Virus record (IMG/VR): IMGVR_UViG_3300020420_000671
Origin: a virus
Taxonomy: Duplodnaviria; Caudoviricetes
Direction: 5' to 3' (one strand)
DNA length: 64,000 nucleotides
The notes beneath the pieces were generated by a model. It had not been told where the DNA came from and made no database searches. It saw nothing but the letters and a program-made list of their open reading frames with translations. Below are positions 2,248 to 28,133 of this stretch, one piece after another. The position numbers and the translations under genes were made by a program. Position 1 is the first letter of the stretch. Each line of letters begins with the position of its first letter.

Positions 2248-3435
2248 ATGTCAGAACTACTAGAAAGTCGCTGGCAGGATACGAAAACTGCACTTCTAGA
2301 AGGCCTCGAAGGCAATAAAAAGTCAGTTATGGGTGTTACATTAGAAAACACTCGTAAGTACTTGGCTGAGGCCGCAACAGCAGGTGCATCTAGTGCAGGC
2401 AACGTTGCTACACTAAACAGAGTGATCCTTCCAGTAATAAGAAGGGTTATGCCTACGGTTATCGCTAACGAATTAGTTGGTGTACAACCTATGACAGGCC
2501 CTGTGGGACAAATCCACACACTAAGAGTAAGATATGCTGACAGTATGGCATCATCTGCAACAGCTACTACAGCAGGCGAAGAGGCATTAAGCCCATTCAA
2601 AATTGCTGAGGGCTATTCAGGTGCTGGCGATGCGGCTACTTACAACGACAAAACAGCTAACACAACAGCTTCTTTAGAAGGTGTAGCTGGTAAGAGATTG
2701 TCAATCCAGATCTTAAAGCAAACAGTCGAAGCAAAAACCAGAAAGCTATCAGCTAGATGGACTTTTGAAGCGGCTCAAGATGCTCAAGCACAACAAGGTA
2801 TTGATATTGAAGCAGAAATTATGGCGGCATTGGCGCAAGAAATTACTGCTGAAATTGATCAAGAGATTCTTTCATCTCTACGTACTTTGGCTGGAACAGT
2901 CGAAACTTACGATCAGGCGGCTGTAAGTGGTACAGCAACTTTTGTTGGTGACGAACATGCGGCATTAGCTGTTCAAATCAACAGAGTGGCAAACTTAATT
3001 GCGGCTAGAACAAGACGTGGTGCTGGTAACTACGCAGTGGTATCACCATTTGCGTTAACATTACTACAGTCTGCTACAACTTCAGCGTTCGCAAGAACAA
3101 CTGAAGGTACTTTCGAAGCTCCAACTAACACTAAAATGGTTGGAACACTTAACGGTGCGATGAAAGTATACGTAGACGCTTATGCGGCGGATAGTACAGA
3201 AGTATTGATTGGATACAAAGGTTCAAGTGAATCTGATGCTCCAGCATTCTACTGTCCATACATTCCGTTAATGTCAAGTGGCGTTGTATTAGATCCAAGC
3301 ACATTTGAGCCAGTAGTGTCATTTATGACAAGATATGGTTACATTGAGCTATCTAATGTGGCATCATCACTTGGTAACGCGGCTGATTACCTTGGCGCAG
3401 TAGCAATTACTAACGGCAACGTATCATTTAGCTAA
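2248..3435 (+). CDS. gp23: Major capsid protein (T4 gp23-like)
   Basis: LVGVQPMTGPVGQI, KTRKLSARWT.E.AQD, EI.AEID.EI, FYCPYIPL, F.P...FMTRYG; SD AAGGAG; followed by a terminator. Confidence 0.97.
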   Translation: MSELLESRWQDTKTALLEGLEGNKKSVMGVTLENTRKYLAEAATAGASSAGNVATLNRVILPVIRRVMPTVIANELVGVQPMTGPVGQIHTLRVRYADSMASSATATTAGEEALSPFKIAEGYSGAGDAATYNDKTANTTASLEGVAGKRLSIQILKQTVEAKTRKLSARWTFEAAQDAQAQQGIDIEAEIMAALAQEITAEIDQEILSSLRTLAGTVETYDQAAVSGTATFVGDEHAALAVQINRVANLIAARTRRGAGNYAVVSPFALTLLQSATTSAFARTTEGTFEAPTNTKMVGTLNGAMKVYVDAYAADSTEVLIGYKGSSESDAPAFYCPYIPLMSSGVVLDPSTFEPVVSFMTRYGYIELSNVASSLGNAADYLGAVAITNGNVSFS

Positions 3436-3456
3436 TACCTAAACGACGACAAATTT

Positions 3457-3485
3457 AAAAAGGGCGACTTGTTCGCCCTTTTTTT
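3457..3485 (+). terminator. Rho-independent terminator after the capsid gene
   Basis: AAAAAGGGCGA-CTTGT-TCGCCCTTTTTTT: GC stem plus U tract; the flanking A tract makes it potentially bidirectional. Confidence 0.9.
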
Positions 3486-3518
3486 ATGGATTTTGGTAAA
3501 CAAAATACAAAAAAAGTG

Positions 3519-3547
3519 TTGACAAATGCTTTTTTCTCTGTTATATT
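3519..3547 (+). promoter_or_regulatory. Sigma70-type promoter (extended -10)
   Basis: TTGACA (3519-3524), 17-nt spacer, TG-n-TATATT (3542-3547), A-rich UP-like tract upstream. Confidence 0.85.
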
Positions 3548-3553
3548 GTTTAC

Positions 3554-3808
3554 ATAAGCTAAAAACTTGTAGCTAGAGTTTTTAAATAGTGCAAGGAAGA
3601 GGCGTTTACCAGAGCGTCGAACTTGGCTGTTTAGGGGTGGTACCCAGGCTTGGTAGTAGAAATACGCTGAGTCACATCGCTCTACCGAGCGGAAACAGGC
3701 TCCCTGGTTATCAGAATGGCATCTGTGGCGAGGGGTTGTAGGTATAACCGAGTCCTACCTATTATTGCTTATTTTAAAAGGTGTGCAAGGAAACTTGTAT
3801 ACCTTTTT
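3554..3808 (+). ncRNA. Candidate structured non-coding RNA (~255 nt), family not recognised
   Basis: Lies between a sigma70 promoter and a terminator; no ORF of 60 aa or more on + in the track; GC-rich relative to flanks; several complementary helices (e.g. 3648-3656/3682-3690, 3627-3632/3693-3698, 3738-3742/3754-3758). Confidence 0.6.
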
Positions 3809-3815
3809 CCTTTTC
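3776..3815 (+). terminator. Terminator hairpin closing the candidate ncRNA unit
   Basis: AAAAGGTGTGCAAG-GAAA-CTTGTATACCTTTT: 14 bp with G-U pairs, GAAA tetraloop, then a T-rich tail. Confidence 0.75.
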
Positions 3816-3816
3816 T

Positions 3817-3912
3817 GATAAATACAATGTCTAAGAGAGAACCTCTGAGATGAGGACTTATGCTGTTTAACCCACAGCGTAGACCTAGAACGTCTAACAT
3901 AAGGAGAAAAAA
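3817..3912 (+). promoter_or_regulatory. Late-promoter box followed by a structured 5' leader
   Basis: GATAAATA at 3817-3824; hairpins 3842-3855, 3859-3881, 3881-3895; SD AAGGAG before ATG 3913. Confidence 0.6.
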
Positions 3913-4530
3913 ATGGGAAGACCTATTAATAAAAAACACATTGGTGATGGAGCAGGTAAAATCCAAGTAACTGCGGTTAAATTCGCATCTGGTGGAGAAG
4001 TTACTACTGAGTCACATATTGTGTCACAAAGATCAACAAGAAAATTCATCGTAACTGATGGAAGTAAAACAGAAACTTGTACACTTGTAAACAAGTCAAT
4101 CGGTGGCTTAGGTGCTAGTGAATTCTGCATCAACGTAACTGACAGTGACGGTGTTACAAAACAAGTAACCAAGTTAATGAACAGAAAAATGCAACTTGAA
4201 GGTGCTTCTAACCATAAATGGGCTAGATCATCAACAGGTACATCTGAAGCGATTGAAAAAGCGATTACTGGAGCAACAGCGGCAAATCCATGTGTTATTA
4301 CATCAAATGGACACGGCTTTGTTAACGGAGATAAAATATCTATCCGTGGCGTAGTTGGAATGGTTGAGCTAAACACTGAAACTGCTTACACAGTGGCAGG
4401 AAAAACAGCTAACACATTTCAGTTATCAGGTGTAAACAGTGGCGGCTTTACTGGTTATACATCAGGCGGTATTGCAACTAAGGCGGCGGCTGAAAGCGGC
4501 GGCATTGTAGTTGACGCACAGGCATCGTAA
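3913..4530 (+). CDS. Virion structural protein with a C-terminal small beta domain
   Basis: C-terminal ITGATAANPCVITSNGHGF.NGD.I.I.G..GM..LN...YTV...T..TF.L resembles the E1-FCCH-like domain seen in phage structural proteins; late-promoter box upstream. Confidence 0.55.
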   Translation: MGRPINKKHIGDGAGKIQVTAVKFASGGEVTTESHIVSQRSTRKFIVTDGSKTETCTLVNKSIGGLGASEFCINVTDSDGVTKQVTKLMNRKMQLEGASNHKWARSSTGTSEAIEKAITGATAANPCVITSNGHGFVNGDKISIRGVVGMVELNTETAYTVAGKTANTFQLSGVNSGGFTGYTSGGIATKAAAESGGIVVDAQAS

Positions 4531-9813: not shown

Positions 9814-12800
9814 ATGGCAATCGGTCGTATATCCGGTCAGCTCTTGAAGTCAAATCTTACGCGAAATGGTGTAGATTTAGCTTTTGAGACAGACCTTTTA
9901 TATTTGGATGTAACAAATCGCAGGATAGGCGTAAAGACAACATCACCTCAATATCCATTAGACATTAACGGCGTTGCCCGTGTTACAGATCTAGAAATAA
10001 CTAATAATACATTCCAAGTTGGAAACATTACGCTTAATGGTTCTACAAACACTATTTCTACATCTGCTCAAGAATTTAACATTGCTACAGCTGACAATAC
10101 TATTGTAGGTAATAGAGTATTGGTAGGCGATTTAGAAATTAATAATAATCACATTGAAAATACAAATACTAATAGCGATTTGTTTATTAGAGCCAACGGT
10201 ACAGGTAATATTAATGTAATAGGTAACACTAACATTAATGGTAATTTACATGCTACAGGTAATATCTCAGCAGATGGTAATATTACATTAGGTGATGCTG
10301 ATACTGATAGCATCTTTATTAATGCTGATATTGCTAGTGATATCATGCCAGATGTTGATAACACATATGACATAGGTAAAGTAGGAAAACGTTGGGCTAC
10401 TGGTAGATTTGCTAACGTAACAACTAATACATTAACAACAAACGATTTAGATTTTGGAAGCATTGATTTGATTTCAGTGCCGGGTAATATAATATATGTA
10501 GCTACCAATGGTGGAGATACAAAAACAGGAACACACCCACAGGATCCTGTAAGAACTATTGCGAAAGCATTAACACTTGCTTCATTAGGAGATACTGTTT
10601 ACATTTATCCAGGACAATATCAAGAAGCATTTCCGTTGAATGTTCCTCTTGGTGTAACTGTTAGAGGACACAGTTTAAGATCAGTTGAAGTTTCTCCAAC
10701 AAGCGGATCACAAAGCAATGATGCTTTTTTATTACAGGGCGACTCTGCTGTAGAAGATTTAACTATTAAAGATTATTATTACAATTCAGGAAGTGATACA
10801 GGTTATGGATTTAAATTTGCTCCTAACTTTAGAGTGTATTTAAGATCTCCATACATTAGAAACGTTACTGTGATCACAAAAGGAACTACAACTTCAACAA
10901 CAGATCCAAGAGGATTCGATTCAGGTGATGCTGGAAGAGGAGCCCTATTAGACGGAAGCATAGCAAACAGTGATTCAAGAGAAGCATCTATGTTGTTTCA
11001 TGCGGTTACATTTATTACTCCTGGACAAACAGCATTAAAAATTACCAATGGTTCAAGAGTAGAATGGTTAAATTGTTTTACGTATTTTGCTGACAAGGGA
11101 ATTGAGATTGTTGACGGAACCTCTGGACTTAAAGGTGACGGTAAAACAAAAATAAAATATAGTGGATTATCAGGATCAGCACCAGGAGCAGGTAATACAA
11201 TTACACTTTATAATGCGGCTGGTACACAATTAGCAACAGCAACCATAGAATCGGTAGCAACTAATGAAGTTATTATAGACGGTAAACCAACAGGATTTAT
11301 TACTCCATTAAGTAGAGCAAAGAAAACTGTAACAGCAGTTGGAAATGCTCAAATTACAACATCTAGTCCAGTTAAGTTTGGATCTGGAATGGGTCTTTTA
11401 GATGGAACTGGTGATAGATTTAGCATTACAACATCTTCAGACTTTGGTTTTGGAACTGGTGACTTTGATGTTGAGGCTTGGATTTATATTTCAGATGATA
11501 CAGGTACAGAATCATTATTTGATTTTAGAGCAGGTAGTGATACGGATAACGGATTACATGTTTATTTTGTAGATAGAAAGCCAAAGGTGTACATAGGAAA
11601 TACAGAAATTTTAGCACCAAACGTAACTCTTACAAATACAACTTTTTATCACGTAAGTGTAACAAGAGTTGGAAATACTTTGAGCTTGTTTATTGACGGC
11701 TTACTACAACAAAACGTGGTTAATACAACTGACTTAGGCACAACCAAACCTTTAATTATAGGATCTAAGTTTGACGGAAGTTCAAGCGATTGGCAAGGTA
11801 GAGTAGATGACGTTAGAATAAGAAAAGGCACAGGTGTAAGCTCTGCTCCTGGATCAGCACCAACTGCTCCAAAGGTAGTTGACCAATATACTGTTTTAAA
11901 ATTAGACTTCAACGGTGATAATGGAAGTCAATCAATTATTGATGACGATACATTTATACAAGACATTAGATTTAATAACGGAGCAACAGCAACAGCATTT
12001 ACATTAATTGATCAATCCGACTTTGGTGGAGAAATAAGATCAATTGCTAGTGCTAGTGTATACGGAAATTACGGAATATACGGTGACGGACCAGGTGTAA
12101 TAGTATATGCTATCGGAATGAATCTAGCATACATTGGTACAGGTAAAGATGTAACAAATGATACAACACAAGTCATACAAGATAATGAAGTCACAGCGTT
12201 GAATGGTGCTAACATTTATTTTAGCACAGTTGATCACAAAGGTGACTTTAGAGTTGGAGATTTATTTAGAGTAAATCAATCAACAGGAGAAGTTACTTTT
12301 ACCAACGCAGAATTTTTATTTAACAACAACCAAGGAATAACTTTTACCGACGGAGTTAATACAACAATTATCGACGGAACTAAAGTAGAATCTGGTGCTA
12401 TAAGAATTACAGGAAACACAATATCAAGTACAAGTGGTGATATAAATTTAAATAGTTCATCTGGAACTATTAACTTATTAGACAATGTTGCTATCACAGG
12501 AAATTTAGATGTTACCGGAAATGTAAGTGTTGGTGGAAATATTACATTAGGTGATGAAGCTACTGATACAATTGATATTCAAGCTAGAATTGCTAGTGAT
12601 ATTGTTCCAAGCGTAGACAATACTTACAAATTAGGAACTAACTTATTAGCTTGGTCCGAATTAAACGTAGGAAAAGTTGTTGTTGATGATATTACAATAG
12701 ATAATGATACAATTCAATCTACAGGAAGTGATGGAAGTATAAATCTTGTTCCAAACGGATCAGGAAAAGTTGTAATTGATAATTTAAAATTTGATTCTAA

Positions 12801-13536
12801 TATTATTTCTAATGATAGTGGAGACATAGTTTTAGATCCTAGCAGTGAATCTGTACAGATTGACAGCACAGGAGCATTGGTGTTACCTAAAGGAACAACA
12901 GCTCAAAGGCCTGGATCTGCTATCACTGGTATGATAAGATACAATACAGACACGAATGTTTTTGAAGCATATGACGGACAGTGGACTGAATTAGGTGGTG
13001 TATACGATGATGACAGAGATACTTATATTACACCAGAACTAACACCTGGCGCAGATGACGATACAATACGCTTTTATGCTGGTGGATCTGTTGTAGCAGA
13101 CGTTACAGCTAATAGATTTGATGTTAAAAAATTAGAAGTAGATGACATATCTGTATCAGGAAATACGCTTCAAACCATAACAACCAATCAAAACTTGGTG
13201 TTAACAGCAAATGGCGGCGGATTTGTTTCCATAGAAAACTTTAGTTTTAACGGAAATCAGATAACTAATACTATAGACGGTGCTGTTACTACATTAAAAC
13301 AGACAGGTACTGGATATTTTAAAATTGACGGTACTGGTGGATTTGTAATACCTGTAGGCACAAACGCTAATAGACATCCAACTCCTGTAACAGGAATGAT
13401 GAGATATAACAGCGTAGCTGACAGGGTTGAAATCTACGATATAGGTGGTAACTGGGTATCAGTTGCTGGTTCAACTGGTGCTGTTTCGTTTAACGATGCG
13501 GAGGAAATAGCTATCAAACTTGCTTTGACAATTTAG
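9814..13536 (+). CDS. Large tail-fibre/baseplate protein (paralogue A2) with an inserted LamG/ConA-like domain
   Basis: Collinear with 6446-9676; about 11300-11920 reads FG.GDF.VEAWIY...HV.VTR.G..L.LFIDG...G..DDVRI, a LamG-like lectin fold. Confidence 0.7.
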   Translation: MAIGRISGQLLKSNLTRNGVDLAFETDLLYLDVTNRRIGVKTTSPQYPLDINGVARVTDLEITNNTFQVGNITLNGSTNTISTSAQEFNIATADNTIVGNRVLVGDLEINNNHIENTNTNSDLFIRANGTGNINVIGNTNINGNLHATGNISADGNITLGDADTDSIFINADIASDIMPDVDNTYDIGKVGKRWATGRFANVTTNTLTTNDLDFGSIDLISVPGNIIYVATNGGDTKTGTHPQDPVRTIAKALTLASLGDTVYIYPGQYQEAFPLNVPLGVTVRGHSLRSVEVSPTSGSQSNDAFLLQGDSAVEDLTIKDYYYNSGSDTGYGFKFAPNFRVYLRSPYIRNVTVITKGTTTSTTDPRGFDSGDAGRGALLDGSIANSDSREASMLFHAVTFITPGQTALKITNGSRVEWLNCFTYFADKGIEIVDGTSGLKGDGKTKIKYSGLSGSAPGAGNTITLYNAAGTQLATATIESVATNEVIIDGKPTGFITPLSRAKKTVTAVGNAQITTSSPVKFGSGMGLLDGTGDRFSITTSSDFGFGTGDFDVEAWIYISDDTGTESLFDFRAGSDTDNGLHVYFVDRKPKVYIGNTEILAPNVTLTNTTFYHVSVTRVGNTLSLFIDGLLQQNVVNTTDLGTTKPLIIGSKFDGSSSDWQGRVDDVRIRKGTGVSSAPGSAPTAPKVVDQYTVLKLDFNGDNGSQSIIDDDTFIQDIRFNNGATATAFTLIDQSDFGGEIRSIASASVYGNYGIYGDGPGVIVYAIGMNLAYIGTGKDVTNDTTQVIQDNEVTALNGANIYFSTVDHKGDFRVGDLFRVNQSTGEVTFTNAEFLFNNNQGITFTDGVNTTIIDGTKVESGAIRITGNTISSTSGDINLNSSSGTINLLDNVAITGNLDVTGNVSVGGNITLGDEATDTIDIQARIASDIVPSVDNTYKLGTNLLAWSELNVGKVVVDDITIDNDTIQSTGSDGSINLVPNGSGKVVIDNLKFDSNIISNDSGDIVLDPSSESVQIDSTGALVLPKGTTAQRPGSAITGMIRYNTDTNVFEAYDGQWTELGGVYDDDRDTYITPELTPGADDDTIRFYAGGSVVADVTANRFDVKKLEVDDISVSGNTLQTITTNQNLVLTANGGGFVSIENFSFNGNQITNTIDGAVTTLKQTGTGYFKIDGTGGFVIPVGTNANRHPTPVTGMMRYNSVADRVEIYDIGGNWVSVAGSTGAVSFNDAEEIAIKLALTI

Positions 13537-13547
13537 GATAAAAAAAT

Positions 13548-13877
13548 ATGGCAACAAATTTTAGAAACATAGTAGGAAAAGACATAGGAACGCAGAGAGT
13601 GGCGGTATACACAACACCTTCGGCAACTAGCACTACAATTATAGGAATGAACATAGCAAACTTAACTGATTCAATGGTAAATTGTACACTAGAGTTAGGC
13701 GACGAAGGAAGTACTATTGGTACATTAATTAGAAATATGCCAATAGCACCAAACACGGCAATGAAACCAATAGGTAAAGGTGAGAAAATTGTTATGGACG
13801 CAAACAACGTTTTATATGTAACCGCGAGTCAAACAGCATCATTAGATGTTATACTCAGCATAGTGGAGATAGTATAA
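13548..13877 (+). CDS. Small beta-rich structural protein (~110-aa family, copy 2)
   Basis: VYTTPSATSTTIIGMNIAN...GEKIVM; similar to 5547 and 24753. Confidence 0.55.
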   Translation: MATNFRNIVGKDIGTQRVAVYTTPSATSTTIIGMNIANLTDSMVNCTLELGDEGSTIGTLIRNMPIAPNTAMKPIGKGEKIVMDANNVLYVTASQTASLDVILSIVEIV

Positions 13878-14236
13878 TGGCTGATACATTTTTAGGACAA
13901 AGTATTACTGATATGGTTGCTCAAACCGATCAGAGATTCTTTTATGGATTACGAAGAACAGCAGATGGTGAACTTTTTATTGCTAAAATAGATCAACTAC
14001 AGGCAAATGATAGTTTAGTTGTAAACAATGAAGGTGATCCAACACAAAATTATGAAGATTTTGAACAAGGGCAAGATTTTTACGAAGGCAGAAACGTAAA
14101 TCATGAAATTGTTTATGAAAACTTAAATTATGAACAATTTAGATGGGATAACAGAAGTATCAATTACTACATAGATGATAGTGGTAATCTTGTTGCTAGA
14201 ATTAATGAAGGGTACACATACCCTACAGGAGTATAA
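13877..14236 (+). CDS. Conserved-type phage structural/hypothetical protein
   Basis: ORF coupled to the upstream gene (TAATG overlap); acidic, aromatic-rich (FYGLRRT.DGEL, YYIDD.GNLV.RIN). Confidence 0.5.
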   Translation: MADTFLGQSITDMVAQTDQRFFYGLRRTADGELFIAKIDQLQANDSLVVNNEGDPTQNYEDFEQGQDFYEGRNVNHEIVYENLNYEQFRWDNRSINYYIDDSGNLVARINEGYTYPTGV

Positions 14237-14259
14237 TAAATACATAAAAGGTTGAGAAA

Positions 14260-17200
14260 ATGGCAGATTTTAAGTTAAGCAGAGTTAGATTTAATTGGAA
14301 AGGTAGTTGGACCGGAGGCGGCAATTATATCGTTGACGATATGATTGAATACAATGGTTACACTTATGTGGCATTAAGAACACATATTTCCGCAGACTTT
14401 TATAATGATCTAGCAGGTACAGATAAAACTCCTGCTCAACCTAAATGGAAAAAACAATCAGAAGGTGTAAGTTGGAAAAAAGATTGGTCAACTAGCACTT
14501 TTTACTCAGTAGGAAATATTGTAAAATATGGTGCTAGTGTTTATGAATGTACAGAATCACATACATCATCATCTACTTTGGCATCAGGCACTGACGGACT
14601 TGTAGCAGATATTAACAAGTGGACACTTGTTGCTGTTTCATCAGCAGATTGGAAATACAACTGGACAATTAATACTCTTTATAGAATCAACGACCTTGTA
14701 AGATACAATGGTAAAGTTTACAAATGTACAGCTCAACACGTATCAGCCGCAACAATATTATTGGGATTAGAAGCAGACCAATCTAAATGGACTGTTTTAT
14801 CAGATTCTGATACTTGGAGAGCAACTTGGGCAATTGGAACAAGATACAAAGTAAATGATATTGTTAAGTATGGTGGTATTGTTTATAAATGTATTACAGG
14901 TCACACTTCAGCAGACAACACAACATTAGGACTAGAAGAAGATCAATCTAAATGGGAAATACAAATTTCCGGAATAGAATATATTGTTAATACCGATGCT
15001 AACACAGGATTGATATCAGGAGAATGGGTAGGCGGAACTCGTTATAAAGTAAATGATATTGTAAAGCGTGGCGGCAACATAATGAGATGTATTGTTGGTC
15101 ATACAGCAACAGCCGGTGACGCTGGATTCAACACAGACTATGGAACAGGCAAATGGACAACCTACTTACCGGGTACAACATATGACAATATTTGGGACAA
15201 CGGTGTATATTATCAAAAAGGAGATTTGGTATTATACGGTGGTTACATTTATAAAGCGGTTACTTTCAACACAGGCAAAGAACCAAGTCAATACGGATCA
15301 GATTGGAATTTAACATTTGAAGGATATAAATTTAGAGGTGATTGGAACAACGCAGGATCAGCAGATAGTGCGGATGTAAACTATAAAACTGGAGACATTG
15401 TAAGACTAACAGGAAACTTATATATTGCTATCCAAGATAGCACAAACTTACAACCAGATCAGTGGCCAACTTATTGGGAACACCTAGTAGACGGCAGAGC
15501 ATTTAGAAACTTCTGGGAAGATAACACAGAATATTACAAAGGTGATATAGTGACTTGGGCAGGTACTGCTTATGTAGCTTTAGTATATCATCGTTCAACT
15601 GAATCAGCATCAAGACCAGACTTAGATGTAGAACAACCAGATCAAAATTACTGGAAGTTAATGATTCTAGGAAATAGAACTAACAAACTTGCTAGAAAAG
15701 GTGATTTAAAAACCTTTGAAGACCAAGACTCAACTGCTATTGATACACAAAGATTAGCAATAGGACAGGATGGTGCGGCATTAATATCAACCGGTACAAT
15801 GCCAGCTTGGGATTTAATTGATTTAGCAGACAAAGTGTATTATGTTTCACTAGACGGAATAGATGATCCAGATAGAGGAGGCACTCTTAATGCTCCATTT
15901 AGAACAGTAAGATATGCCACACAATATCTATTCCAAGATGAAGTAAACAGAGTAGGTATTGGAGCAACTATTTTTGTAACAGCAGGAGATTATAAAGAAA
16001 TACTTCCAATAAGTTTACCAGCAAAGGTAGCATTGGTTGGAGCAGAACTGAGATCCACAAGTATTAGTCCTGCTATTAACGGAACAGATGTTGTACTTGG
16101 TCCAAGAAATGCCGCAGGAATACAAGAAGCTTTAACAATTCCTTCATTGAACGAAAGAAATAATATGTTCTATGTAAGAAACAGTTGTGGCATAAGAAGA
16201 CTTACTCTAAGAGGATTGACTGGAGTATTAAGTGTAGCAAACGCTTATGGTACAAAAAGACCAAGTGGTGGAGCATTTGTATCACTAGATCCAGGTACTG
16301 GTACATCTGATACTGATGTTTGGATTGCTAGTAAGGCAAAAGCGTATTATACACCTTCAACTGCTTCTTATAATCCAGCAGACGGTGTGTTTACAATGAC
16401 TTTACCTACACAACAGTATACGGTAACTGATGCTACATATGATCCTAAGTCAGGAGTAATGGTAGCTACAATAGGTAATCATACACTAGACGTTGGAGAA
16501 ACAATTAGAATTGCGACAGAAAGCGTATCGTTTACGTGTTCAAAAGACAATTATAATTCAGTCCATGCTTATCCAAGAATAAGTGATCCGGCGGCAGGTA
16601 CAGATATAAGAATATTTGATAAATCTGCTACAACTATTTCAGTAAATGTTGGTAAGAGTAAAGATAACGATCAATATACCCATAAATTTTCAAGTGCTAC
16701 TAACAACGGTATAACTTGGAATCATAATTTAAAAGTTGGTAATTCAATAGCGATTGCCGGCAATGCTTTTACATTTACTTGTACAATGGACGGAAACACA
16801 GCACAGAAGACATATCCAAGAACAACAGATCCTGCTTACAATCAAAAATTAGCAATTACAGCAGTAACTACTGAAACCTTTACAGTTAATGTAGGAAAAT
16901 CAAGTGCTAGTGATCAATATGCTCATACTTTTGTTTCAGTAACACCTGAATCAGTGAGCTTTGAAAGAATATCAGCAGGACGTTCACCATATATCCAAGG
17001 TGTAACAACAATAGGTGATAATTGTATTGGAATGAAAATTGATGGAGCATTACACAACGGCGGAAATAGATCAATCGTTGCTAATGACTTTACACAAGTT
17101 TTATCAGACGGTATAGGTTACTGGGCAACAAACTTAGGACGTTCAGAACTTGTATCGGTGTTTACATACTACGCTCACATAGGATACCTAGCTGAAAACG

Positions 17201-19839
17201 GCGGTATAATGAGAGCAACAAACGGAAATAACTCTTATGGAGACTTTGGTTCAGTTGCTGAAGGATTTGATGCTAACGAAATTCCACAAACTGCTACAGT
17301 CAACAACAGAAGTACTGAAGCACAAGTTGATAATATTTTTACAGATGGTTCACAGGTACTTGCTTTAGAATACACCAACGCAGGTGAAACATATAGCACA
17401 GCATCAGCGGCATTTACACAAGTTGCTGGTACAGGTTTATCTGTGTATTGGGAAGAATTTAGACAAGGCGCTGTAAACAAGATTGAATTACAACTACCAG
17501 ATGACAGTACTAACGTTGGTGGTAGAGGTTTTCAATTTGCTACTAATACAGCTCAAGCAGGAGACTTAACAAGTATTACATTATCACAGTCGGAATCAAG
17601 AACAGCTTCTAGCATTAATGGTTCAAGAATTATGATCACAGAAGGTCCTGGTTCTGGACAATATGGTTATATTGTAAATTATAATGCGTCAACAAAAGTA
17701 GCACAGGTTTATAAAGACAGTACAGGTACACCAGGCTTTGATAATTTACTAGCAGGTAAGGTAAATGCTACAGCATTAGGAGCAACGACAGTTTATGCTA
17801 TAGAGCCAAGAGCAACGATTGCGGCGCCGACATTTAATGTGTCTAACAACAGCATTCAATCAGGTGCTCCTGACATTGGATATAGTGATACACTAGGATT
17901 ATGGTATTATGGAGTAACAGGTACTGATGATTTTTACACATCACCAGACGGAAGTGTATGGACACAAAGACCGACGGCAGTAAGCAATATTGCTTCTCAA
18001 AATTATACAGCATTTTCAAAATCAGGTCCAATATTAGCGGCAGTGGCAAATTCAACAGACACATTAGTATTTTCAAATGATGGAGCTACTTTTGATACAT
18101 CAACTTTACCAGCTACCAACAATTGGACAAGAGTTCAAATAGGTGGACTTAATGACAATGTTATTATGGCAACGGGCGATAACAACAGTGACATTTATGT
18201 TGGCTCACTTACAACTTCAAATGATAGTACTATTGTTACAGGAACTTGGACAACCAAAGCACTTGGCACAGGAAATAAAAACTGGGTAGGTTTAGCTTAT
18301 GGAGCAGGTAAGTGGATTGCTATTGCTACAGATGGTACAACAGTGATTTCCACAGACAACGGAGTAAGTTGGAGTACAGGTTCAGCAGTTACACCAGGTG
18401 GATCAGAAGAATATACAGATTTAATTTTTGGAAGTAATGCTTGGGTAGCATCAATGAAAAATTCAGATAGAATAATTTATAGTGCTGATGGATCAAATTG
18501 GTACGATGCGGCACTACTAGGTGACTCAACAACCAACGCATGGAAAGTTGGTTATTCACAAGGAGCTTTTGTTGCTGTAAATGAAAACGGAAACGCACTT
18601 GAATCAGGTGATGCTCATAATTGGAATACTATTTCTACAATTAATAACTTAACAGCCATAGTTGGAGGCGTAGCTTCAAACAAACCAACTTGGATTGGGG
18701 TAAGACAAAGCACAGGAACAGGAAATATTATTACAGGTGGTAAGAGAGCTTTTGCTAGGGTAGAAATTGCTACAAACAGTATTAGTAAATTTAAACTATA
18801 CGAAGTAGGAAGTGGATATGATTCATCAACACCTCCAACATTAACAGTTTATGATCCAGGTGAGACAGGTGAACCTTATTACCAAGTAAATGTTGCGAAT
18901 GGTGTATTAGGACAGCCAACTTTCTATAACAGAGGTACAGGTTATGCCACGGCAGTCATAGCAATTACTGGTAACGGTTATGCCGAAGCAAAACAAGTAG
19001 GTAACTCAATGGTAATTACAGGAATAGATCTTGTACCAGGTCCTGGAGCAAACGTTGTGTTCACAGGAGATTCCACAGTTTATAGATTGGTTAAAGTAAC
19101 TAAGACTGAAGGCTCTGCTCCTAATAGACAAATTACTTTCCAAATATCTCCAGTACTATCAAGAGGCACAGCACCAGCCCATGGTGTAACAGCTACAATT
19201 AGAGAAAGATATTCACAATGTAGATTGACTGGACATGACTTCTTAGACATAGGAACGGGTAACTTTGCTAATACAAACTATCCAGCACTATACATAGCAG
19301 GACAAACAAGTGTCAACGAAACAGAACAAGCAAATGAAGTACGCGAAGCAAACGGTGGTAGAGTATTCTACACAAGTACAGACCAAGACGGTAACTACAG
19401 GGTTGGTGAACTATTTAAAGTTAGCCAAGCACAAGGTGGTGTTACTTTAAGTGCTGACTTCTTTGATCTAGAAGGATTAGATGAAATTAGATTAGGTGGA
19501 ATTAGTGTAGGGGGAACACAAGCTGTTATTAGAGAATTTTCAACAGAAGTTACTTTTGTTGCTAATAGCAACAACATAGTTCCAACACAAAAGGCACTAA
19601 AAGCCTATATCGAAAATAGATTTACAGGTGGTGGATCAAATCTGTTTACAAACGCACTTACAGCTGGACAGATCAAGTTAGAATCAAGGACTATATCCAA
19701 TACAGCAGGATCAAATAATCCATTGGCAATGGCAACAGTATCACCAAATTTTGAAATTAGGGGGTCGTTAGGCGGAGGACTAGCGGCACTTAATATGTTC
19801 TTTTCATCAAGAACTGAAAGAGATGACTTTAACGGATAA
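14260..19839 (+). CDS. Giant fibre/baseplate protein (paralogue B1): Trp/Tyr-rich N-terminal repeats, beta-helix core, repeat insertion, propeller-like insertion
   Basis: MADFKLSRVRF.WKG.W start, ~50-aa W....Y...D.V.YGG..Y.C...HTS repeats, RSPY.QGVT, HDFLDIGTG, RVFYTSTDQDGN; late box at 14235-14242. Confidence 0.7.
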   Translation: MADFKLSRVRFNWKGSWTGGGNYIVDDMIEYNGYTYVALRTHISADFYNDLAGTDKTPAQPKWKKQSEGVSWKKDWSTSTFYSVGNIVKYGASVYECTESHTSSSTLASGTDGLVADINKWTLVAVSSADWKYNWTINTLYRINDLVRYNGKVYKCTAQHVSAATILLGLEADQSKWTVLSDSDTWRATWAIGTRYKVNDIVKYGGIVYKCITGHTSADNTTLGLEEDQSKWEIQISGIEYIVNTDANTGLISGEWVGGTRYKVNDIVKRGGNIMRCIVGHTATAGDAGFNTDYGTGKWTTYLPGTTYDNIWDNGVYYQKGDLVLYGGYIYKAVTFNTGKEPSQYGSDWNLTFEGYKFRGDWNNAGSADSADVNYKTGDIVRLTGNLYIAIQDSTNLQPDQWPTYWEHLVDGRAFRNFWEDNTEYYKGDIVTWAGTAYVALVYHRSTESASRPDLDVEQPDQNYWKLMILGNRTNKLARKGDLKTFEDQDSTAIDTQRLAIGQDGAALISTGTMPAWDLIDLADKVYYVSLDGIDDPDRGGTLNAPFRTVRYATQYLFQDEVNRVGIGATIFVTAGDYKEILPISLPAKVALVGAELRSTSISPAINGTDVVLGPRNAAGIQEALTIPSLNERNNMFYVRNSCGIRRLTLRGLTGVLSVANAYGTKRPSGGAFVSLDPGTGTSDTDVWIASKAKAYYTPSTASYNPADGVFTMTLPTQQYTVTDATYDPKSGVMVATIGNHTLDVGETIRIATESVSFTCSKDNYNSVHAYPRISDPAAGTDIRIFDKSATTISVNVGKSKDNDQYTHKFSSATNNGITWNHNLKVGNSIAIAGNAFTFTCTMDGNTAQKTYPRTTDPAYNQKLAITAVTTETFTVNVGKSSASDQYAHTFVSVTPESVSFERISAGRSPYIQGVTTIGDNCIGMKIDGALHNGGNRSIVANDFTQVLSDGIGYWATNLGRSELVSVFTYYAHIGYLAENGGIMRATNGNNSYGDFGSVAEGFDANEIPQTATVNNRSTEAQVDNIFTDGSQVLALEYTNAGETYSTASAAFTQVAGTGLSVYWEEFRQGAVNKIELQLPDDSTNVGGRGFQFATNTAQAGDLTSITLSQSESRTASSINGSRIMITEGPGSGQYGYIVNYNASTKVAQVYKDSTGTPGFDNLLAGKVNATALGATTVYAIEPRATIAAPTFNVSNNSIQSGAPDIGYSDTLGLWYYGVTGTDDFYTSPDGSVWTQRPTAVSNIASQNYTAFSKSGPILAAVANSTDTLVFSNDGATFDTSTLPATNNWTRVQIGGLNDNVIMATGDNNSDIYVGSLTTSNDSTIVTGTWTTKALGTGNKNWVGLAYGAGKWIAIATDGTTVISTDNGVSWSTGSAVTPGGSEEYTDLIFGSNAWVASMKNSDRIIYSADGSNWYDAALLGDSTTNAWKVGYSQGAFVAVNENGNALESGDAHNWNTISTINNLTAIVGGVASNKPTWIGVRQSTGTGNIITGGKRAFARVEIATNSISKFKLYEVGSGYDSSTPPTLTVYDPGETGEPYYQVNVANGVLGQPTFYNRGTGYATAVIAITGNGYAEAKQVGNSMVITGIDLVPGPGANVVFTGDSTVYRLVKVTKTEGSAPNRQITFQISPVLSRGTAPAHGVTATIRERYSQCRLTGHDFLDIGTGNFANTNYPALYIAGQTSVNETEQANEVREANGGRVFYTSTDQDGNYRVGELFKVSQAQGGVTLSADFFDLEGLDEIRLGGISVGGTQAVIREFSTEVTFVANSNNIVPTQKALKAYIENRFTGGGSNLFTNALTAGQIKLESRTISNTAGSNNPLAMATVSPNFEIRGSLGGGLAALNMFFSSRTERDDFNG
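14290..15660 (+). repeat. Tandem ~50-aa Trp/Tyr repeats (CBM5/12-like) in the protein
   Basis: About 9 imperfect copies of W....Y...D.V.Y.G..Y.C...H.S; boundaries approximate. Confidence 0.65.
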
Positions 19840-19875
19840 TGATAAATATGTATAATACCAAGAACGGAGCAAAAA

Positions 19876-22800
19876 ATGGCAGAATTTAAACTAGGTAGAA
19901 TTAGATTTATCTGGAAAGACAACTGGGCGGCTACTACGACTTATCTAAAAGATGACGTAATTAGATATGGTGGTAGAACTTATGTTTGTGTAACTGGACA
20001 CACATCAACGTCTAATTTCTACTCAGATATATCAAACTGGAACAATTTCAGTGATGGTACCCAATGGAAAAGTGATTGGAGCGCCGCAACTTTTTACAAA
20101 ATAAATGACATCGTAAGATACGGTGGTATCATTTATATTTGTAACACAGGACACACAGCACAATCAACACTAGAAGCTGATCAATCAAAATGGGATCAGT
20201 TTGCTACATCAATTGACTGGAAAGACAACTGGGTAGCAGGTACTGTTTACAAAGCGAACGACTTGGTAAAATATGGTGGAAACATTTACATTTGTAACAC
20301 TGGTCATACTGCCGCGGCCACGAATGCACTTGGACTTGAAGCTGACATATTAAAATGGGACCTATTCTCCGAAGGTCAAGATTGGAAACAAAATTGGGCT
20401 ATCAATACAAGATATAAAATTAACGATATTGTTAAGTATGGTGGAACACTTTACGTTTGTAACACTGGACATACTTCAAACGCATCAGCATCAAGCGGAT
20501 TAGAAGCAGACCAGGCAAAATGGGATTATTTAAATAAAGGAATTGAATACTTAGGTGAGTGGGCAAATAGCTACAGATACAAAGTAAATGACGTTGTACT
20601 TTATGGTGCGACACTTTGGATTTGTACAACACAACATACTTCAGTTGTAACAAATGCAGATTCACAACTAGGTACGCTACAAGCAGATATTGCCAACTGG
20701 GATAAATTTGTTCCTGGATTAGAATTTGAAAACACATGGCAAGGCGATGAAAGATATCAACCAGGTGACTTTGTTACATATGGTGGTAATCAATATGTTG
20801 CTAATCAAAACGTATACGGTGACATTCCTCCTTCAAGTGCTAAATGGGATCTTGTTACATCAGGATTTAATTTAAGAGGCGACTGGGGTGATGACTCTAC
20901 CAACCAAGAATACAAAATTGGTGATGTTGTAAGACTAGGTGGTTACACTTATCTTGCTACAGCTAACAGCACAGGACAACGTCCACCTAACGCAACTTAT
21001 TGGTCAAGATTGAATCAAGGTATTGAATGGAAAAATACTTGGACCACAGCTACAGTTTACGACTTAGGTGATGCTGTACGTTATGGCTTAATCAGTTATG
21101 TTTGTGTACAAGCACATACATCTGACACAGCAAAACGTCCAGACAATGATTCAGCAGGTGCTTTTTGGAATAACCTAGCATCAGGTGCTGAGGAAAGTAC
21201 AATTACAACGCAAGGTGACTTGTTATACTTTGGTGGATCAGGACCAACTAGATTACCAATTGGAGCAGACGGCCAAGTATTAAGTGTATCAAGCGGAGGC
21301 ATTCCAGAGTGGAAAGACTTTGGTGCTGTACCTGATGTATATTATGTATCAGGCGGAATTGGTACAGATAATCCAACTCCAGCAAACGGGACTACTTTAG
21401 ATAGACCTTGGAAAACAATTAGATACGCATGTGATCAAATTGAAAAAGGTGCTAAAAATCCTAATGCTGTCAGCTTGTTAGAAAAAAATAGAATGTTTAT
21501 AGCATATGAAACTGCTAAATGGGCAAAGAGACAGATCATTGAACAGAATTCTCCGTTCTTTATTGGATTTTCTTTTGATGAAGCCAAGTTCCAAAGACTA
21601 GCAGGTTTTGCTTTAGATGCTATCACAGTTGATTTGAGAAGAGGCGGAAACGTAGAAACACGTAGAGCTGGTCAGGCAATGAAGGACAACGTAACTGGAG
21701 ACTTCTTTGATACAGGTTCAGAAACACAAAACGTTGCGGCATTAAATCATGTCATTTCTTTATGTAGTGATGTAATTAATAGTGCTACACCATCCGCTGA
21801 CTACCAAGCATTAGATGGAGTAGCATCAGCAGATAGATATTTACAAACTAAAGATTCTACAATAACACCAGAACCAACTGCTTTGTCAACTTTAACAACT
21901 AACATGGCTGTCATTACAAGTTCTATTACACTTGGAGGTGGATACACTCTCCCAACACAAGTGATACTTCATAAAGTATTATTAGTAAAGACTGGTAATT
22001 ACAAAGAAGTTCTTCCAATTAGAGTTCCTGAAAAAGTTGCTATTGTTGGTGACGAATTGCGTTCGACTAGAGTTGAACCAGCAGGGCAATTAACGAACTC
22101 AGGAGATACTGTTTATTCATTAGCGGGAATTACTCACATGAAGAGTATATTAGACGATATTATTGAAGGAACATCAATAACACGTCAAACAGGAAATACT
22201 CTCACACAGGATGTATCCAAACCAAATAGTACTTCAGCAGTATCAACTATTGTTACAGATCTTTCACAAGAATTGTATGACAAGATTGACTTTGAAGTTA
22301 ATGGAGCATCAGGAGACTCAACTGCTCCAACTATTAGAGGTTCAAATACAAGAGTAGATGATCAAGATAAGTTTGCTGGTGTTAGAGCAATAATGATGAA
22401 CAAGGACTTTATTGCTGAAGATGTTACAAAATATATAAATGTTAACTATCCATCTTATACATTTGATGAAGCACAATGTAAATCAGATATAAAAAATTAT
22501 CTTGATGGATTTATACATGACTTAACATTTAGTTTCAGCGAAGGATCAAACTATGCTACAATCTACAACGGATTATATTATGGAAATAGCGTAAACGGTT
22601 CTACATTAGAAAACATGTATCTATTAAGAGATGCTACTGGTATTAGAAATCAAACACTAGGTGGATTAAGCGGAACATTAAGTTCAGCAAACCAATACGG
22701 AACTAAGAGACCATCAGCTGGTGCTTACTGTTCATTGGATCCAGGATGGGGACCAGATGATACAAGAGTTTGGATATCAACACGTTCACCATACGTACAA

Positions 22801-24723
22801 GGTGTAACTAACTTTGGTACAGCTTGTGTAGGATTGAAAATTGATGGAGACTTACATAACGGTGGTAATGATTCAATCGTTGCTAACGACTTTACGCAAG
22901 TCATATCAGATGGTATTGGTGCGTGGGTTACAAACTTAGGTAGAGCAGAACTTGTTTCTGTGTTCTCATACTATGGACACATTGGATATCTATCAGAAAA
23001 CGGTGGTAAGATAAGAGGTACTAACGGAAACTGTTCATACGGTGACTTTGGTGCGGTATCTGAAGGCGTTGACGGAAGTGAAACTCCAATAACTGGTGGT
23101 GTTAACAATAGAAAACTTGAAGCAACAGTTGGTAGAGCATTGACTGACGGAAGTAGCATTATACATTTTGAATACACAAACGCAGGTAACAATTATACCA
23201 GTGCTACATACACAATAAGTGGAGCAGGATATGGTGCGGTTATTGCTAATGCTAATGCTGTAAACAATGGTATATTTGAAGTTAGACTAAGAAATCCAGA
23301 CGATGGATCGACTTATAATACTTCTGATGTTGACAATGACGGAGTATTAAATGATCCAGATGTAATTGGTGGTAGAGGATATGTGTCAAGTGAAAACACG
23401 GCACAGGGTGGTAACGCTACTACTATTATTTTATCAAACACTGAAACAGCTAACAGTACAAAATATGTTGGAATGAGAGTTGTAATTACAGCAGGTACAG
23501 GTGCTGGACAATACGCACAAATTACTGCGTACAATCCAGGAACAAAAGTTGCTAACGTTGCTAAAGAATCAGATGGAACAGCTGGATGGGATACATGGCA
23601 CTATTCAAATGGTATTCAATCTACTTTAGATGCTACAACAACTTATTCAATTGAACCAAGATGTGTTATTTCCGGCGGTGGAGGAACAGGAGCTCAAGTT
23701 AGAGCACAAGTTTCCAACGGTAGAATCACACAGTTTTACATAATAAATCCAGGAAGCGGATACACAAGTGGTCCATCAATGTTAATTGTTGATAACAATG
23801 AAACTATTGAAGCACCGTTTGAAATTAGAGTTGGTAATGGAGTATTGACACAACCTACATGGACTAGTAGAGGACTTGACTTTGAGACAGCAGGTGCTAC
23901 TTTGGTTGGTGACGGTTTTGCTGACACATTCCAAAGCAAGAACTTCTTAAACGTTTATGGATTAACAGATCAACCAGAAGAAGGCTCTAACTTAGAAATA
24001 GATGGTGATAGCAGATACTTCAAGGTGGTTTTTGTAAGAGAACTATCAGGTAGTGCTGGAAACTATTCAGCAAACTTACAAGTTTCGCCAAACATTGGTG
24101 TAGAAAAAGCACCTATACACGGTGCTAATATTTCTATAAGAAAGAGATTTAGTCAAGTTAGATTAACAGGACACGACTTCCTAGATATAGGTACTGGTAA
24201 CTTTGCTAGTACAAACTATCCAGGAACTCCGTCTGTACCAAATGACGCAAATGACGAAGTTAAAGAATATGGCGGTGGAAGAGTATTCTACACATCCACT
24301 GACCAAGATGGTAACTTTAGAGTAGGTAGATTGTTCAACGTTGAACAGTCAACTGGTTCTGCCAGCTTAAACACAAGTGCGTTTAGTTTAGCAGGACTAC
24401 AAGAACTTTCATTAGGTGCTGTAGGACTTGGTGAGAGTGGAGCAACAATTAATGAATTTAGTACAGACGGTACGTTTAGTGCTAATTCAAACAGCGTTGT
24501 TCCGACTCAGGCGGCTATTATTACTTACATCAATTCACAAATTGGTGGTGGATCTAGTAGCCTTAACGTTAACGCAGTTACAGCTGGTAAAATAAATATC
24601 ACTGGAAACACGATTGGTACAACTGACAATTCGCAGATCACTGTAACCACTGGAATGAATTTCAATGGTGGAGTATTAGGATCTCCGGTTGCCATGTCGT
24701 ACTTTTTAACAAGTAAAACATAA
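19876..24723 (+). CDS. Giant fibre/baseplate protein (paralogue B2)
   Basis: MAEFKLGRIRFIWK start; same repeats and core motifs as 14260-19839; late box GATAAATA at 19841-19848. Confidence 0.7.
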   Translation: MAEFKLGRIRFIWKDNWAATTTYLKDDVIRYGGRTYVCVTGHTSTSNFYSDISNWNNFSDGTQWKSDWSAATFYKINDIVRYGGIIYICNTGHTAQSTLEADQSKWDQFATSIDWKDNWVAGTVYKANDLVKYGGNIYICNTGHTAAATNALGLEADILKWDLFSEGQDWKQNWAINTRYKINDIVKYGGTLYVCNTGHTSNASASSGLEADQAKWDYLNKGIEYLGEWANSYRYKVNDVVLYGATLWICTTQHTSVVTNADSQLGTLQADIANWDKFVPGLEFENTWQGDERYQPGDFVTYGGNQYVANQNVYGDIPPSSAKWDLVTSGFNLRGDWGDDSTNQEYKIGDVVRLGGYTYLATANSTGQRPPNATYWSRLNQGIEWKNTWTTATVYDLGDAVRYGLISYVCVQAHTSDTAKRPDNDSAGAFWNNLASGAEESTITTQGDLLYFGGSGPTRLPIGADGQVLSVSSGGIPEWKDFGAVPDVYYVSGGIGTDNPTPANGTTLDRPWKTIRYACDQIEKGAKNPNAVSLLEKNRMFIAYETAKWAKRQIIEQNSPFFIGFSFDEAKFQRLAGFALDAITVDLRRGGNVETRRAGQAMKDNVTGDFFDTGSETQNVAALNHVISLCSDVINSATPSADYQALDGVASADRYLQTKDSTITPEPTALSTLTTNMAVITSSITLGGGYTLPTQVILHKVLLVKTGNYKEVLPIRVPEKVAIVGDELRSTRVEPAGQLTNSGDTVYSLAGITHMKSILDDIIEGTSITRQTGNTLTQDVSKPNSTSAVSTIVTDLSQELYDKIDFEVNGASGDSTAPTIRGSNTRVDDQDKFAGVRAIMMNKDFIAEDVTKYINVNYPSYTFDEAQCKSDIKNYLDGFIHDLTFSFSEGSNYATIYNGLYYGNSVNGSTLENMYLLRDATGIRNQTLGGLSGTLSSANQYGTKRPSAGAYCSLDPGWGPDDTRVWISTRSPYVQGVTNFGTACVGLKIDGDLHNGGNDSIVANDFTQVISDGIGAWVTNLGRAELVSVFSYYGHIGYLSENGGKIRGTNGNCSYGDFGAVSEGVDGSETPITGGVNNRKLEATVGRALTDGSSIIHFEYTNAGNNYTSATYTISGAGYGAVIANANAVNNGIFEVRLRNPDDGSTYNTSDVDNDGVLNDPDVIGGRGYVSSENTAQGGNATTIILSNTETANSTKYVGMRVVITAGTGAGQYAQITAYNPGTKVANVAKESDGTAGWDTWHYSNGIQSTLDATTTYSIEPRCVISGGGGTGAQVRAQVSNGRITQFYIINPGSGYTSGPSMLIVDNNETIEAPFEIRVGNGVLTQPTWTSRGLDFETAGATLVGDGFADTFQSKNFLNVYGLTDQPEEGSNLEIDGDSRYFKVVFVRELSGSAGNYSANLQVSPNIGVEKAPIHGANISIRKRFSQVRLTGHDFLDIGTGNFASTNYPGTPSVPNDANDEVKEYGGGRVFYTSTDQDGNFRVGRLFNVEQSTGSASLNTSAFSLAGLQELSLGAVGLGESGATINEFSTDGTFSANSNSVVPTQAAIITYINSQIGGGSSSLNVNAVTAGKINITGNTIGTTDNSQITVTTGMNFNGGVLGSPVAMSYFLTSKT
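19900..21185 (+). repeat. Tandem ~45-50-aa Trp/Tyr repeats (CBM5/12-like) in the protein
   Basis: About 9 copies, e.g. W.A.T.YK.ND.V.YGG..YICNTGHT; boundaries approximate. Confidence 0.65.
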
Positions 24724-26405: not shown

Positions 26406-26417
26406 GGAAATATAATT

Positions 26418-27254: not shown

Positions 27255-27263
27255 GGATAGAAA

Positions 27264-28103: not shown

Positions 28104-28133
28104 AATGATAAATACTTGTAGGAGCAAAACGCA

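Follow-up and report, generated by a model that had tools for sequence, protein, structure and literature searches.

The manA RNA was described as a motif of marine samples and cyanophages that is located in potential 5' untranslated regions (5' UTRs) and was classified as a probable riboswitch (Weinberg et al. 2010, PMC2864571). Later work has kept this riboswitch view, and no ligand has been reported for manA in the literature. According to a cryo-electron microscopy (cryo-EM) preprint of July 2026, manA RNAs form decamers as well as a 60-subunit icosahedral-like cage in vitro, and these oligomers are assembled from pentamers, which L5-L7' and L8-L9' kissing loops or an L6 GNRA-receptor contact hold together (bioRxiv 10.64898/2026.07.01.735769). 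Here, we analysed a stretch of 64,000 nucleotides (nt) from a virus (Duplodnaviria; Caudoviricetes; IMG/VR record IMGVR_UViG_3300020420_000671), called the window in the following, which carries a structured RNA gene between the terminator of its capsid gene and the signals of the next gene. This RNA is a canonical member of the manA family and not a new RNA class. With a probability of roughly 0.72, we consider it an independently transcribed, self-contained unit that is made early and acts in trans rather than as a cis-regulator. All window features given below are located on the plus strand.

Family membership was assessed with cmscan. The Rfam model RF01745 (manA RNA) is matched over its whole length (positions 1-192 of 192) by window positions 3561-3768 with 59.0 bits and an E-value of 1.8e-12, i.e., above the gathering score of 55.2 bits, and no other Rfam family reaches its gathering score within the 64-kb window. 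The margin is small for the window RNA, and its close homologues score 55.5-57.9 bits with some of them under the cut-off. That is, the window RNA is part of a divergent subfamily about 4 bits over the cut-off, while cyanophage members reach 120-173 bits. It shares with the family the multi-stem architecture, the GUGGU and ACC loop motifs and the habitat of marine T4-like phages, and differs from the Rfam family by a longer helix P6 and an added outer helix P0. ARAGORN found no tRNA or tmRNA genes in the window, and the Rfam scan returned no window match to ROOL or GOLLD at gathering thresholds. A preliminary description of this DNA, which had been made from the letters alone, proposed a standalone non-coding RNA (ncRNA) unit between the capsid terminator and a late promoter, saw no hallmarks of tRNA, tmRNA, RNase P or hammerhead RNAs and took a match to an Rfam family as the finding that removes the novelty. 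The unit stands, while the novelty is lost: the Rfam cmscan that was suggested there as a check returns a known family, and its above-threshold RF01745 score marks the RNA as a known one.

Upstream of the RNA lies the gene of the major head (capsid) protein (2248..3435; phrog_138, E 4.2e-97). Its intrinsic terminator can be read from the sequence at 3456..3485 and consists of an A-run, the stem GGGCGA/TCGCCC (3462-3467/3473-3478) and T7. It is followed by a sigma70-type promoter (3519..3547) with 11/12 matches, composed of the -35 element TTGACA (3519-3524), a 17-nt spacer, a TG (3539-3540) before the -10 element and the -10 element TATATT (3542-3547), such that a transcription start is predicted near A3552/A3554. 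The manA core (3561..3768) has a GC content of 48% compared to 30% and 35% in its flanks, in line with the GC-richer stretch noticed before. Downstream of it, the intrinsic terminator of the RNA gene (3776..3815) comprises a 14-pair hairpin at 3776-3807, which is present in both the minimum free energy (MFE) and the centroid fold, and subsequent T-rich sequence. The core of the hairpin is GGTGTGCAAG-GAAA-CTTGTATACC at 3780-3803. Weak Rfam matches near the capsid terminator and the promoter (ctRNA_pT181, SraG, sraA and others) score far below their gathering scores and were rejected as terminator or AT-rich look-alikes.

For the comparative analysis, 80 loci were taken from at least 598 relatives of the capsid protein in viral contigs, a further 120 loci were collected via the conserved core word of the RNA, and nhmmer provided 129 matches. 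The resulting set holds 82 non-identical full-length instances with flanks, which reduce to 74 distinct RNA sequences. Individual loci are referred to by L numbers in the following. At the DNA level, Pelagibacter phage Mosig alone among the catalogued phages shows similarity to the window RNA, and the L061-type manA RNA has no DNA-level match among them.

RNAalifold applied to the 74 distinct homologues recovers the Rfam helices, i.e., 54 base pairs with 96.7% canonical cells. Double-sided changes are observed for 40/54 pairs. When the 3' partners are slid by 1-3 columns as a control, only 35-51% of the cells are paired and 12-16 pairs show double-sided changes. Folding of the predicted 261-nt transcript of the window yields -91.6 kcal/mol as MFE, which none of 200 shuffled sequences reaches (z = -4.38). 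Helices and loops are numbered here by our own mapping, which counts hairpins in order and was not taken from the figures of the preprint. The fold comprises the P1 hairpin (3561-3566/3578-3583), P2 (3585-3589/3759-3763), P3 (3592-3595/3622-3625 plus 3601-3606/3613-3618), P4 (CTGTTT/AAACAG, 3627-3632/3693-3698), P5 (3634-3636/3643-3645) with the loop GUGGUA (3637-3642), P6 (3647-3658/3663-3673) with a GAAA loop, P7 (3677-3681/3688-3692) with the loop CUACCG (3682-3687), P8 (3701-3707/3730-3736 plus 3712-3715/3722-3725) and P9 (3738-3742/3754-3758).

The covariation among homologues that the preliminary description had proposed to look for is thus present (40/54 pairs compensated), and part of the helices drawn there by eye agree with the Rfam/covariation structure. 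CTGTTT/AAACAG is P4, CCCT/AGGG enclosing CAGA/TCTG is P8, GTAGG/CCTAC is P9, and from GGGT/ACCC the GGG/CCC part is retained as P5. On the other hand, three proposed pairings are incompatible with covarying helices and show no compensation, namely the 9-bp helix 3648-3656/3682-3690 (78% paired), for which P6 and P7 are in the way, the AGCGT/ACGCT pseudoknot (74%) and the AGAGCG/CGCTCT alternative (77%). The end-closing helix 3584-3594/3765-3774 is not supported as drawn and gives way to two conserved closures, namely P2 and P0.

P0 is located outside of the Rfam model. In the MFE fold, AUAAGC (3554..3559) just past the predicted start pairs with GCUUAU (3767..3772) just before the terminator. 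Homologues show the compensatory variants AAUGC/GCAUU, AUAUGC/GCAUAU and AUAAGU/ACUUAU, and the median duplex energy of P0 is -6.2 kcal/mol compared to -1.6 kcal/mol for shuffles. Judged from fold and covariation, P0 is predicted to join the two ends of the transcript. Since it is conserved, the functional RNA should span at least 3554-3772, i.e., somewhat more than the Rfam model.

The host-type sigma70 promoter and the own terminator of the preliminary description are likewise borne out and backed by the homologues. In 64/82 flanked homologues, a promoter matches the consensus at 10 or more of its 12 positions, and between its -10 element and the 5' hairpin there are 4-15 nt, in most cases 12-15 nt. 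The arrangement TTGACA-N17-TATAAT also occurs directly upstream of manA in six cyanophages (P-HM1, P-SSM2, P-SSM4, P-RSM4, S-SSM5 and MbCM1). For P-HM1, P-SSM2, P-RSM4, S-SSM5 and MbCM1, it is embedded in a TTGACA-bearing hairpin, a T-run and TGCTATAAT 5-9 nt before the RNA, where P-RSM4 has TGCTATAGT in place of TGCTATAAT; P-SSM4 shows the promoter without hairpin. The terminator is present in 49/82 flanked loci and starts 4-15 nt past the RNA in 48 of them. These 48 loci show 30 different 5' arms, and this turnover of the stem implies that the terminator is maintained.

Beyond the terminator, the window continues with the late-promoter-like GATAAATA (3817..3824), which resembles the T4-type late promoter core TATAAATA and is presumed, by analogy with T4 biology, to be the late promoter of the next gene. 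It is followed by a freshwater-2-like 5' leader (3841..3915), including an AAGGAG ribosome-binding site and the ATG, and by a gene for a 205-amino-acid (aa) protein (3913..4530) that is probably structural (Pfam E1_FCCH, 2.3e-11; weak phrog_584 'major tail protein'). With regard to the leader, the Rfam model RF02980 (freshwater-2) scores 46.1 bits in the window and thus stays below its gathering score of 49.9 bits, while 12/20 scanned relatives are above this threshold at the same position (50.5-76.6 bits). Our literature search on freshwater-2 revealed nothing relevant. Throughout this phage group, freshwater-2 is observed as the leader of the gene after the capsid gene (L002, L008, L019, L042, L061, L071 and others), where it begins just past the conserved GATAAATA and takes in AAGGAG and ATG. 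Among the 48 loci with a terminator past the RNA, ATAAATA follows it in 40/48, a new TTGAC in 9/48 and either of both in 44/48.

We also took a census of the site among 60 evaluable relatives of the capsid gene. An equivalent of the capsid terminator, i.e., a hairpin plus T-run past the stop codon, is found in relatives as well, and GATAAATA follows directly after it where manA is missing. manA is present in 10/60 relatives. For 9/60, the capsid terminator leads straight to GATAAATA, the freshwater-2 leader and the ATG, while 19/60 show neither manA nor the leader. The remaining 22/60 carry other inserts, and 8/11 inspected inserts of ~300-350 nt encode a conserved open reading frame (ORF) of 85-92 aa. 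That is, manA is optional among relatives and the leader is present without it, so the cassette counts among the optional inserts of a variable slot, and the downstream gene is equipped with signals of its own.

Other contents of this slot are seen in further loci. A conserved ~89-aa ORF behind a TTAAATA-type element occupies it in L027 (4170-4503 of that locus), L025, L065, L060, L057, L073, L079 and L018, i.e., this ORF is alternative cargo of the same variable site. A divergent, manA-like RNA fills the slot in L013 (3319-3673), together with the same promoter, a ATAGTGCAAGGAA motif and a terminator. It was missed by nhmmer, which suggests that the manA family is wider than Rfam or homologue-built models detect. 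Furthermore, the interval from capsid gene to manA includes an aptamer of the glutamine riboswitch (RF01739, 47-58 bits) in L071 (2734-2783), L008 (3972-4021), L002 (4234-4281) and L019 (4666-4713), apparently before an ORF of 50-80 aa that ends ~62 nt upstream of manA; the window is without RF01739.

In the cultured cyanophages P-HM1, P-RSM4, S-SSM5 and MbCM1, manA is found 60-70 nt past gp23 (manA positions from Table S7, PMC9964418), i.e., at the same place after the major head gene and with the same type of promoter as in the window. Among 65 pattern-derived loci, which were not selected via the capsid gene, 33 have manA at most 1.5 kb after it. manA is located away from any capsid gene in Mosig, P-SSM2, P-SSM4 and S-CREM1. 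For the latter, it is annotated between a tRNA-Leu that ends 1 nt before manA and a tRNA-Asn that starts on its last base, from which we infer that tRNA processing should release a discrete manA RNA. This S-CREM1 copy (L204, 10132-10501) is part of an array that also carries wcaG and abiF RNAs. In three cyanophages, annotated 'hypothetical proteins' (T4-GC 524, 428) overlap manA, namely at 112705-112881 in P-HM1 (L207), 116417-116623 in S-SSM5 (L209) and 164884-165057 in P-SSM4 (L206); these are probably spurious ORF calls over the RNA.

ROOL and GOLLD are large structured phage-linked RNAs of ~500-800 nt that were found to form multimers and often lie beside tRNA genes. Like manA, they are stand-alone, highly structured phage ncRNAs, and the S-CREM1 copy of manA also sits between tRNAs; unlike manA, they are far larger, and they show no sequence or structure kinship with it. 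With regard to the manA homo-oligomers, the window RNA keeps the GNRA-capped P6 as well as complementary L5/L7 and L8/L9 loops, while the oligomers were observed for other family members in vitro. L5 (GUGGUA) is complementary to L7 (CUACCG) via GGUA/UACC, and this pairing is kept in 96% of the cells. Since the core word used for the collection fixes L5, which is hence invariant in the main set, the L5/L7 complementarity in this set represents conservation and not covariation. Changes do occur elsewhere, i.e., 3 sequences carry GC/GC instead of GG/CC at L8/L9, with both sides changed, and the distant member L061 shows UAGU/ACUA at L5/L7, where the window has GGUA/UACC. The window loops and the GAAA-capped P6 thus appear compatible with oligomer assembly.

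The manA stretch is also present in RNA libraries of four studies. A 481-nt stretch occurs in a large number of marine DNA runs, and six metatranscriptome runs contain ~41-48% of the words sampled from it. Contigs identical to the window were assembled from four metatranscriptome runs (labelled X15 to X18), covering 3566-3783 in X15, 3572-3688 and 3659-3773 in X16, 3517-3729 in X17 and 3631-3757 in X18. The 3' stops of the contigs differ (3729, 3757, 3773, 3783), so they do not map a 3' end, and the fact that 3796-4215 is uncovered in these four runs does not count as evidence of termination. In X16, the contig depth is 122 for manA and ~10-13 for identical capsid-gene contigs, a difference which cannot rank expression. 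One X16 contig joins 3773 via CTT back to 3659. The resulting cyclic 118-nt path does not match an end-to-end RNA junction; it may have arisen artificially, during assembly or reverse transcription.

In the reading that we favour, the host-type sigma70 promoter would initiate transcription near 3552-3554, the RNA would fold into the multi-stem manA core with P0 (3554-3559/3767-3772) clamping its ends, and the intrinsic terminator would stop the transcript near 3806-3812, which would result in an RNA of ~255 nt. Unmodified host polymerase would make this RNA early. The RNA would then accumulate as a stable free molecule and act in trans, for which the likeliest mode would be self-assembly into closed oligomers via the loops L5 GGUA/L7 UACC and L8 GG/L9 CC. 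The own promoter, the end-clamping helix, the maintained terminator and the slot that is empty in close relatives favour such a trans-acting free RNA over a cis-regulator. Furthermore, the next gene has its own late-promoter-like element and leader, and a cassette that occupies a variable slot between these and the capsid terminator would not be expected to control this gene. The reading as a stand-alone ncRNA transcribed by the host polymerase is supported for much of the manA family.

Several observations weigh against this reading. First, neither the ends nor the strand nor the level of a transcript can be taken from assembled contigs, and these may stem from carried-over DNA, such that the RNA-library data give only a weak hint of a discrete transcript. 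The X17 contig (3517-3729) even starts upstream of the predicted start. Second, the loci with a terminator come mostly from a single clade, in which they follow a related capsid gene, so the number of 48 overstates the independent observations. Third, the Mosig-like pelagiphage group has the promoter and P0 while lacking the terminator, and its RNA ends 18-27 nt before an ORF, which encodes a rubrerythrin in Mosig; similarly, manA of P-SSM2 ends 16 nt before purL. Both layouts fit the published cis-regulatory view. Finally, covariation cannot separate intra- from intermolecular pairing, and cages and decamers are reported only in vitro, in a preprint, and for other manA members.

The alternative that survives best is the catalogued one, i.e., a cis-acting riboswitch or attenuator in which manA senses a metabolite or condition and the hairpin 3776-3807 decides whether transcripts started at the sigma70 promoter proceed into the 205-aa gene. 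manA is listed among candidate cis-regulatory riboswitches both by Rfam and by Weinberg et al. 2010 (PMC2864571), transcriptional riboswitches classically consist of an aptamer with a terminator behind it, and manA directly precedes an ORF in the Mosig-like loci and P-SSM2. Such a switch should show in the pairing between RNA and terminator, and here the data point the other way. The window terminator begins 8 nt past the end of the Rfam-matched RNA and overlaps neither P2 nor P0. Across the 48 terminator loci, the terminator hairpin has a median energy of -14.6 kcal/mol, compared to ~-8 kcal/mol for the best pairing of its 5' arm with manA, and it is formed in 42/48 MFE folds of the full transcript as well as in the direct fold of the window. 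No mutually exclusive pairing of aptamer and expression platform is evident across these loci and the window. Thus, the varied stems (30 unrelated arms) after a constant manA 3' end and the missing overlap with P2/P0 leave no basis for an antiterminator.

The surroundings of manA argue in the same direction. While the catalogued manA is a riboswitch candidate of 5' UTRs, the window RNA has its own terminator and then a separate promoter-like element. A 5'-UTR placement with transcription into the next gene, which is an inferred property of the family and outside of manA's sequence definition, is not what we observe, since terminator, GATAAATA and leader intervene. The 205-aa gene keeps its own GATAAATA and freshwater-2 leader, which are found without manA in relatives. 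Downstream genes vary among loci, and for six loci the next ORF is apparently convergent according to a crude length-based ORF caller. Finally, the tRNAs on both sides of the S-CREM1 copy are at odds with a switch for a downstream gene. Overall, we regard a riboswitch function at this locus as unlikely.

PeSL motifs, which combine a terminator with an early promoter, have been proposed to shuffle cassettes in T4-like phages (PMC2839356, PMC4122927). The manA locus may resemble this system: its insert, which varies in presence, lies between core genes in a putatively hyperplastic region and has a terminator stem-loop and an early sigma70 promoter at its borders. It differs in its cargo, i.e., PeSL cassettes surround ORFs in coliphage- and vibriophage-type T4 relatives while the cargo here is an RNA, and in its spacing, since hairpin and promoter are fused in cyanophages while capsid terminator and promoter are ~33 nt apart in the window. 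Given the resemblance of the fused cyanophage hairpin to PeSL, a hyperplastic slot is at least as likely an explanation of the position as a functional tie to the capsid. Along this line, manA could be the selfish or neutral passenger of a mobile PeSL-type promoter-terminator cassette that is kept by recombination into hyperplastic sites. The variable presence in one slot among close relatives as well as the composite cyanophage hairpin, which contains the -35 hexamer and has the -10 element next to it directly upstream of manA, would agree with that. However, the fold is kept with 40 compensated pairs across diverged phage groups and the loop motifs are conserved, which implies that the RNA itself is under selection. 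A cassette may well be both mobile and functional; a mere passenger is quite improbable.

Equally improbable is a 3' element of the capsid mRNA that would be made by read-through and would stabilise or localise the message. It would explain the frequent position after gp23, i.e., the 60-70 nt distance in four cyanophages and the 33/65 loci within 1.5 kb of the capsid gene, and the RNA-library contig that begins upstream of the predicted start agrees with it. Against it stand the capsid terminator that precedes the cassette in the window and in relatives, the strong conserved promoter between capsid gene and manA, and the copies remote from capsid genes in Mosig, P-SSM2, P-SSM4 and S-CREM1. A small protein gene, finally, can be dismissed with near certainty: the 50-codon GTG frame 3589-3741 is part of the window's ORF list, but it is open in just 11/74 homologues, the lengths of this stretch are spread over all three residues modulo 3, substitutions track base-pairing rather than codons, and no conserved short ORF, which had been named beforehand as speaking against an RNA gene, was found among the 74 homologues.

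Beyond the manA locus, similarity of the whole window to catalogued phages is limited to part of the capsid gene (~71%), and all of these phages are jumbo enterobacterial ones. The nearest catalogued DNA relatives of the capsid gene are enterobacterial jumbo phages of ~350-380 kb (Serratia BF, Erwinia pEa_SNUABM, E. coli phages). Related contigs (L022, L025, L027, L136) have lengths of 176-210 kb at a CheckV completeness of 49-60%, with at most one manA copy each. Considering these contig sizes and the jumbo relatives of the capsid, the uncultured marine myophage behind the window may have a jumbo genome. At 25566-28925, there are four ORFs in a row (263-279 aa) that resemble an array of tandem paralogues, the first two of which share 67% identity, are Cys/Gly-rich and end in GGSG-VKITF. 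Very long ORFs (1240, 1859, 1615 and 1987 aa) are found at 9814-24723 and 39642-45605. These ORFs, presumably structural, follow downstream of a 1076-aa protein with matches to families of baseplate wedges and tail fibres.

Returning to the favoured reading of manA as a trans-acting free RNA, a bolder version for the whole family would be that manA RNAs are not riboswitches and instead free-standing early phage RNAs, set free by a promoter and terminator of their own, by the processing of flanking tRNAs or from the head of an early message, which would then self-assemble inside infected cells into cages made of RNA only. We consider this version doubtful. If true, the recurrent position after the capsid gene in distantly related marine myophages would reflect a role in particle formation or in protecting or sequestering something, and not a chance hyperplastic slot. 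For manA, an orphan 'riboswitch candidate' ever since its description in 2010, the window locus together with ~80 relatives shows the RNA packaged as its own gene. Several annotated 'hypothetical proteins' of cyanophages are probably manA RNA. The segment 3554-3772, with or without the terminator, and the culturable phages P-HM1, P-RSM4 and S-SSM5 provide handles on expression timing, assembly and phenotype.

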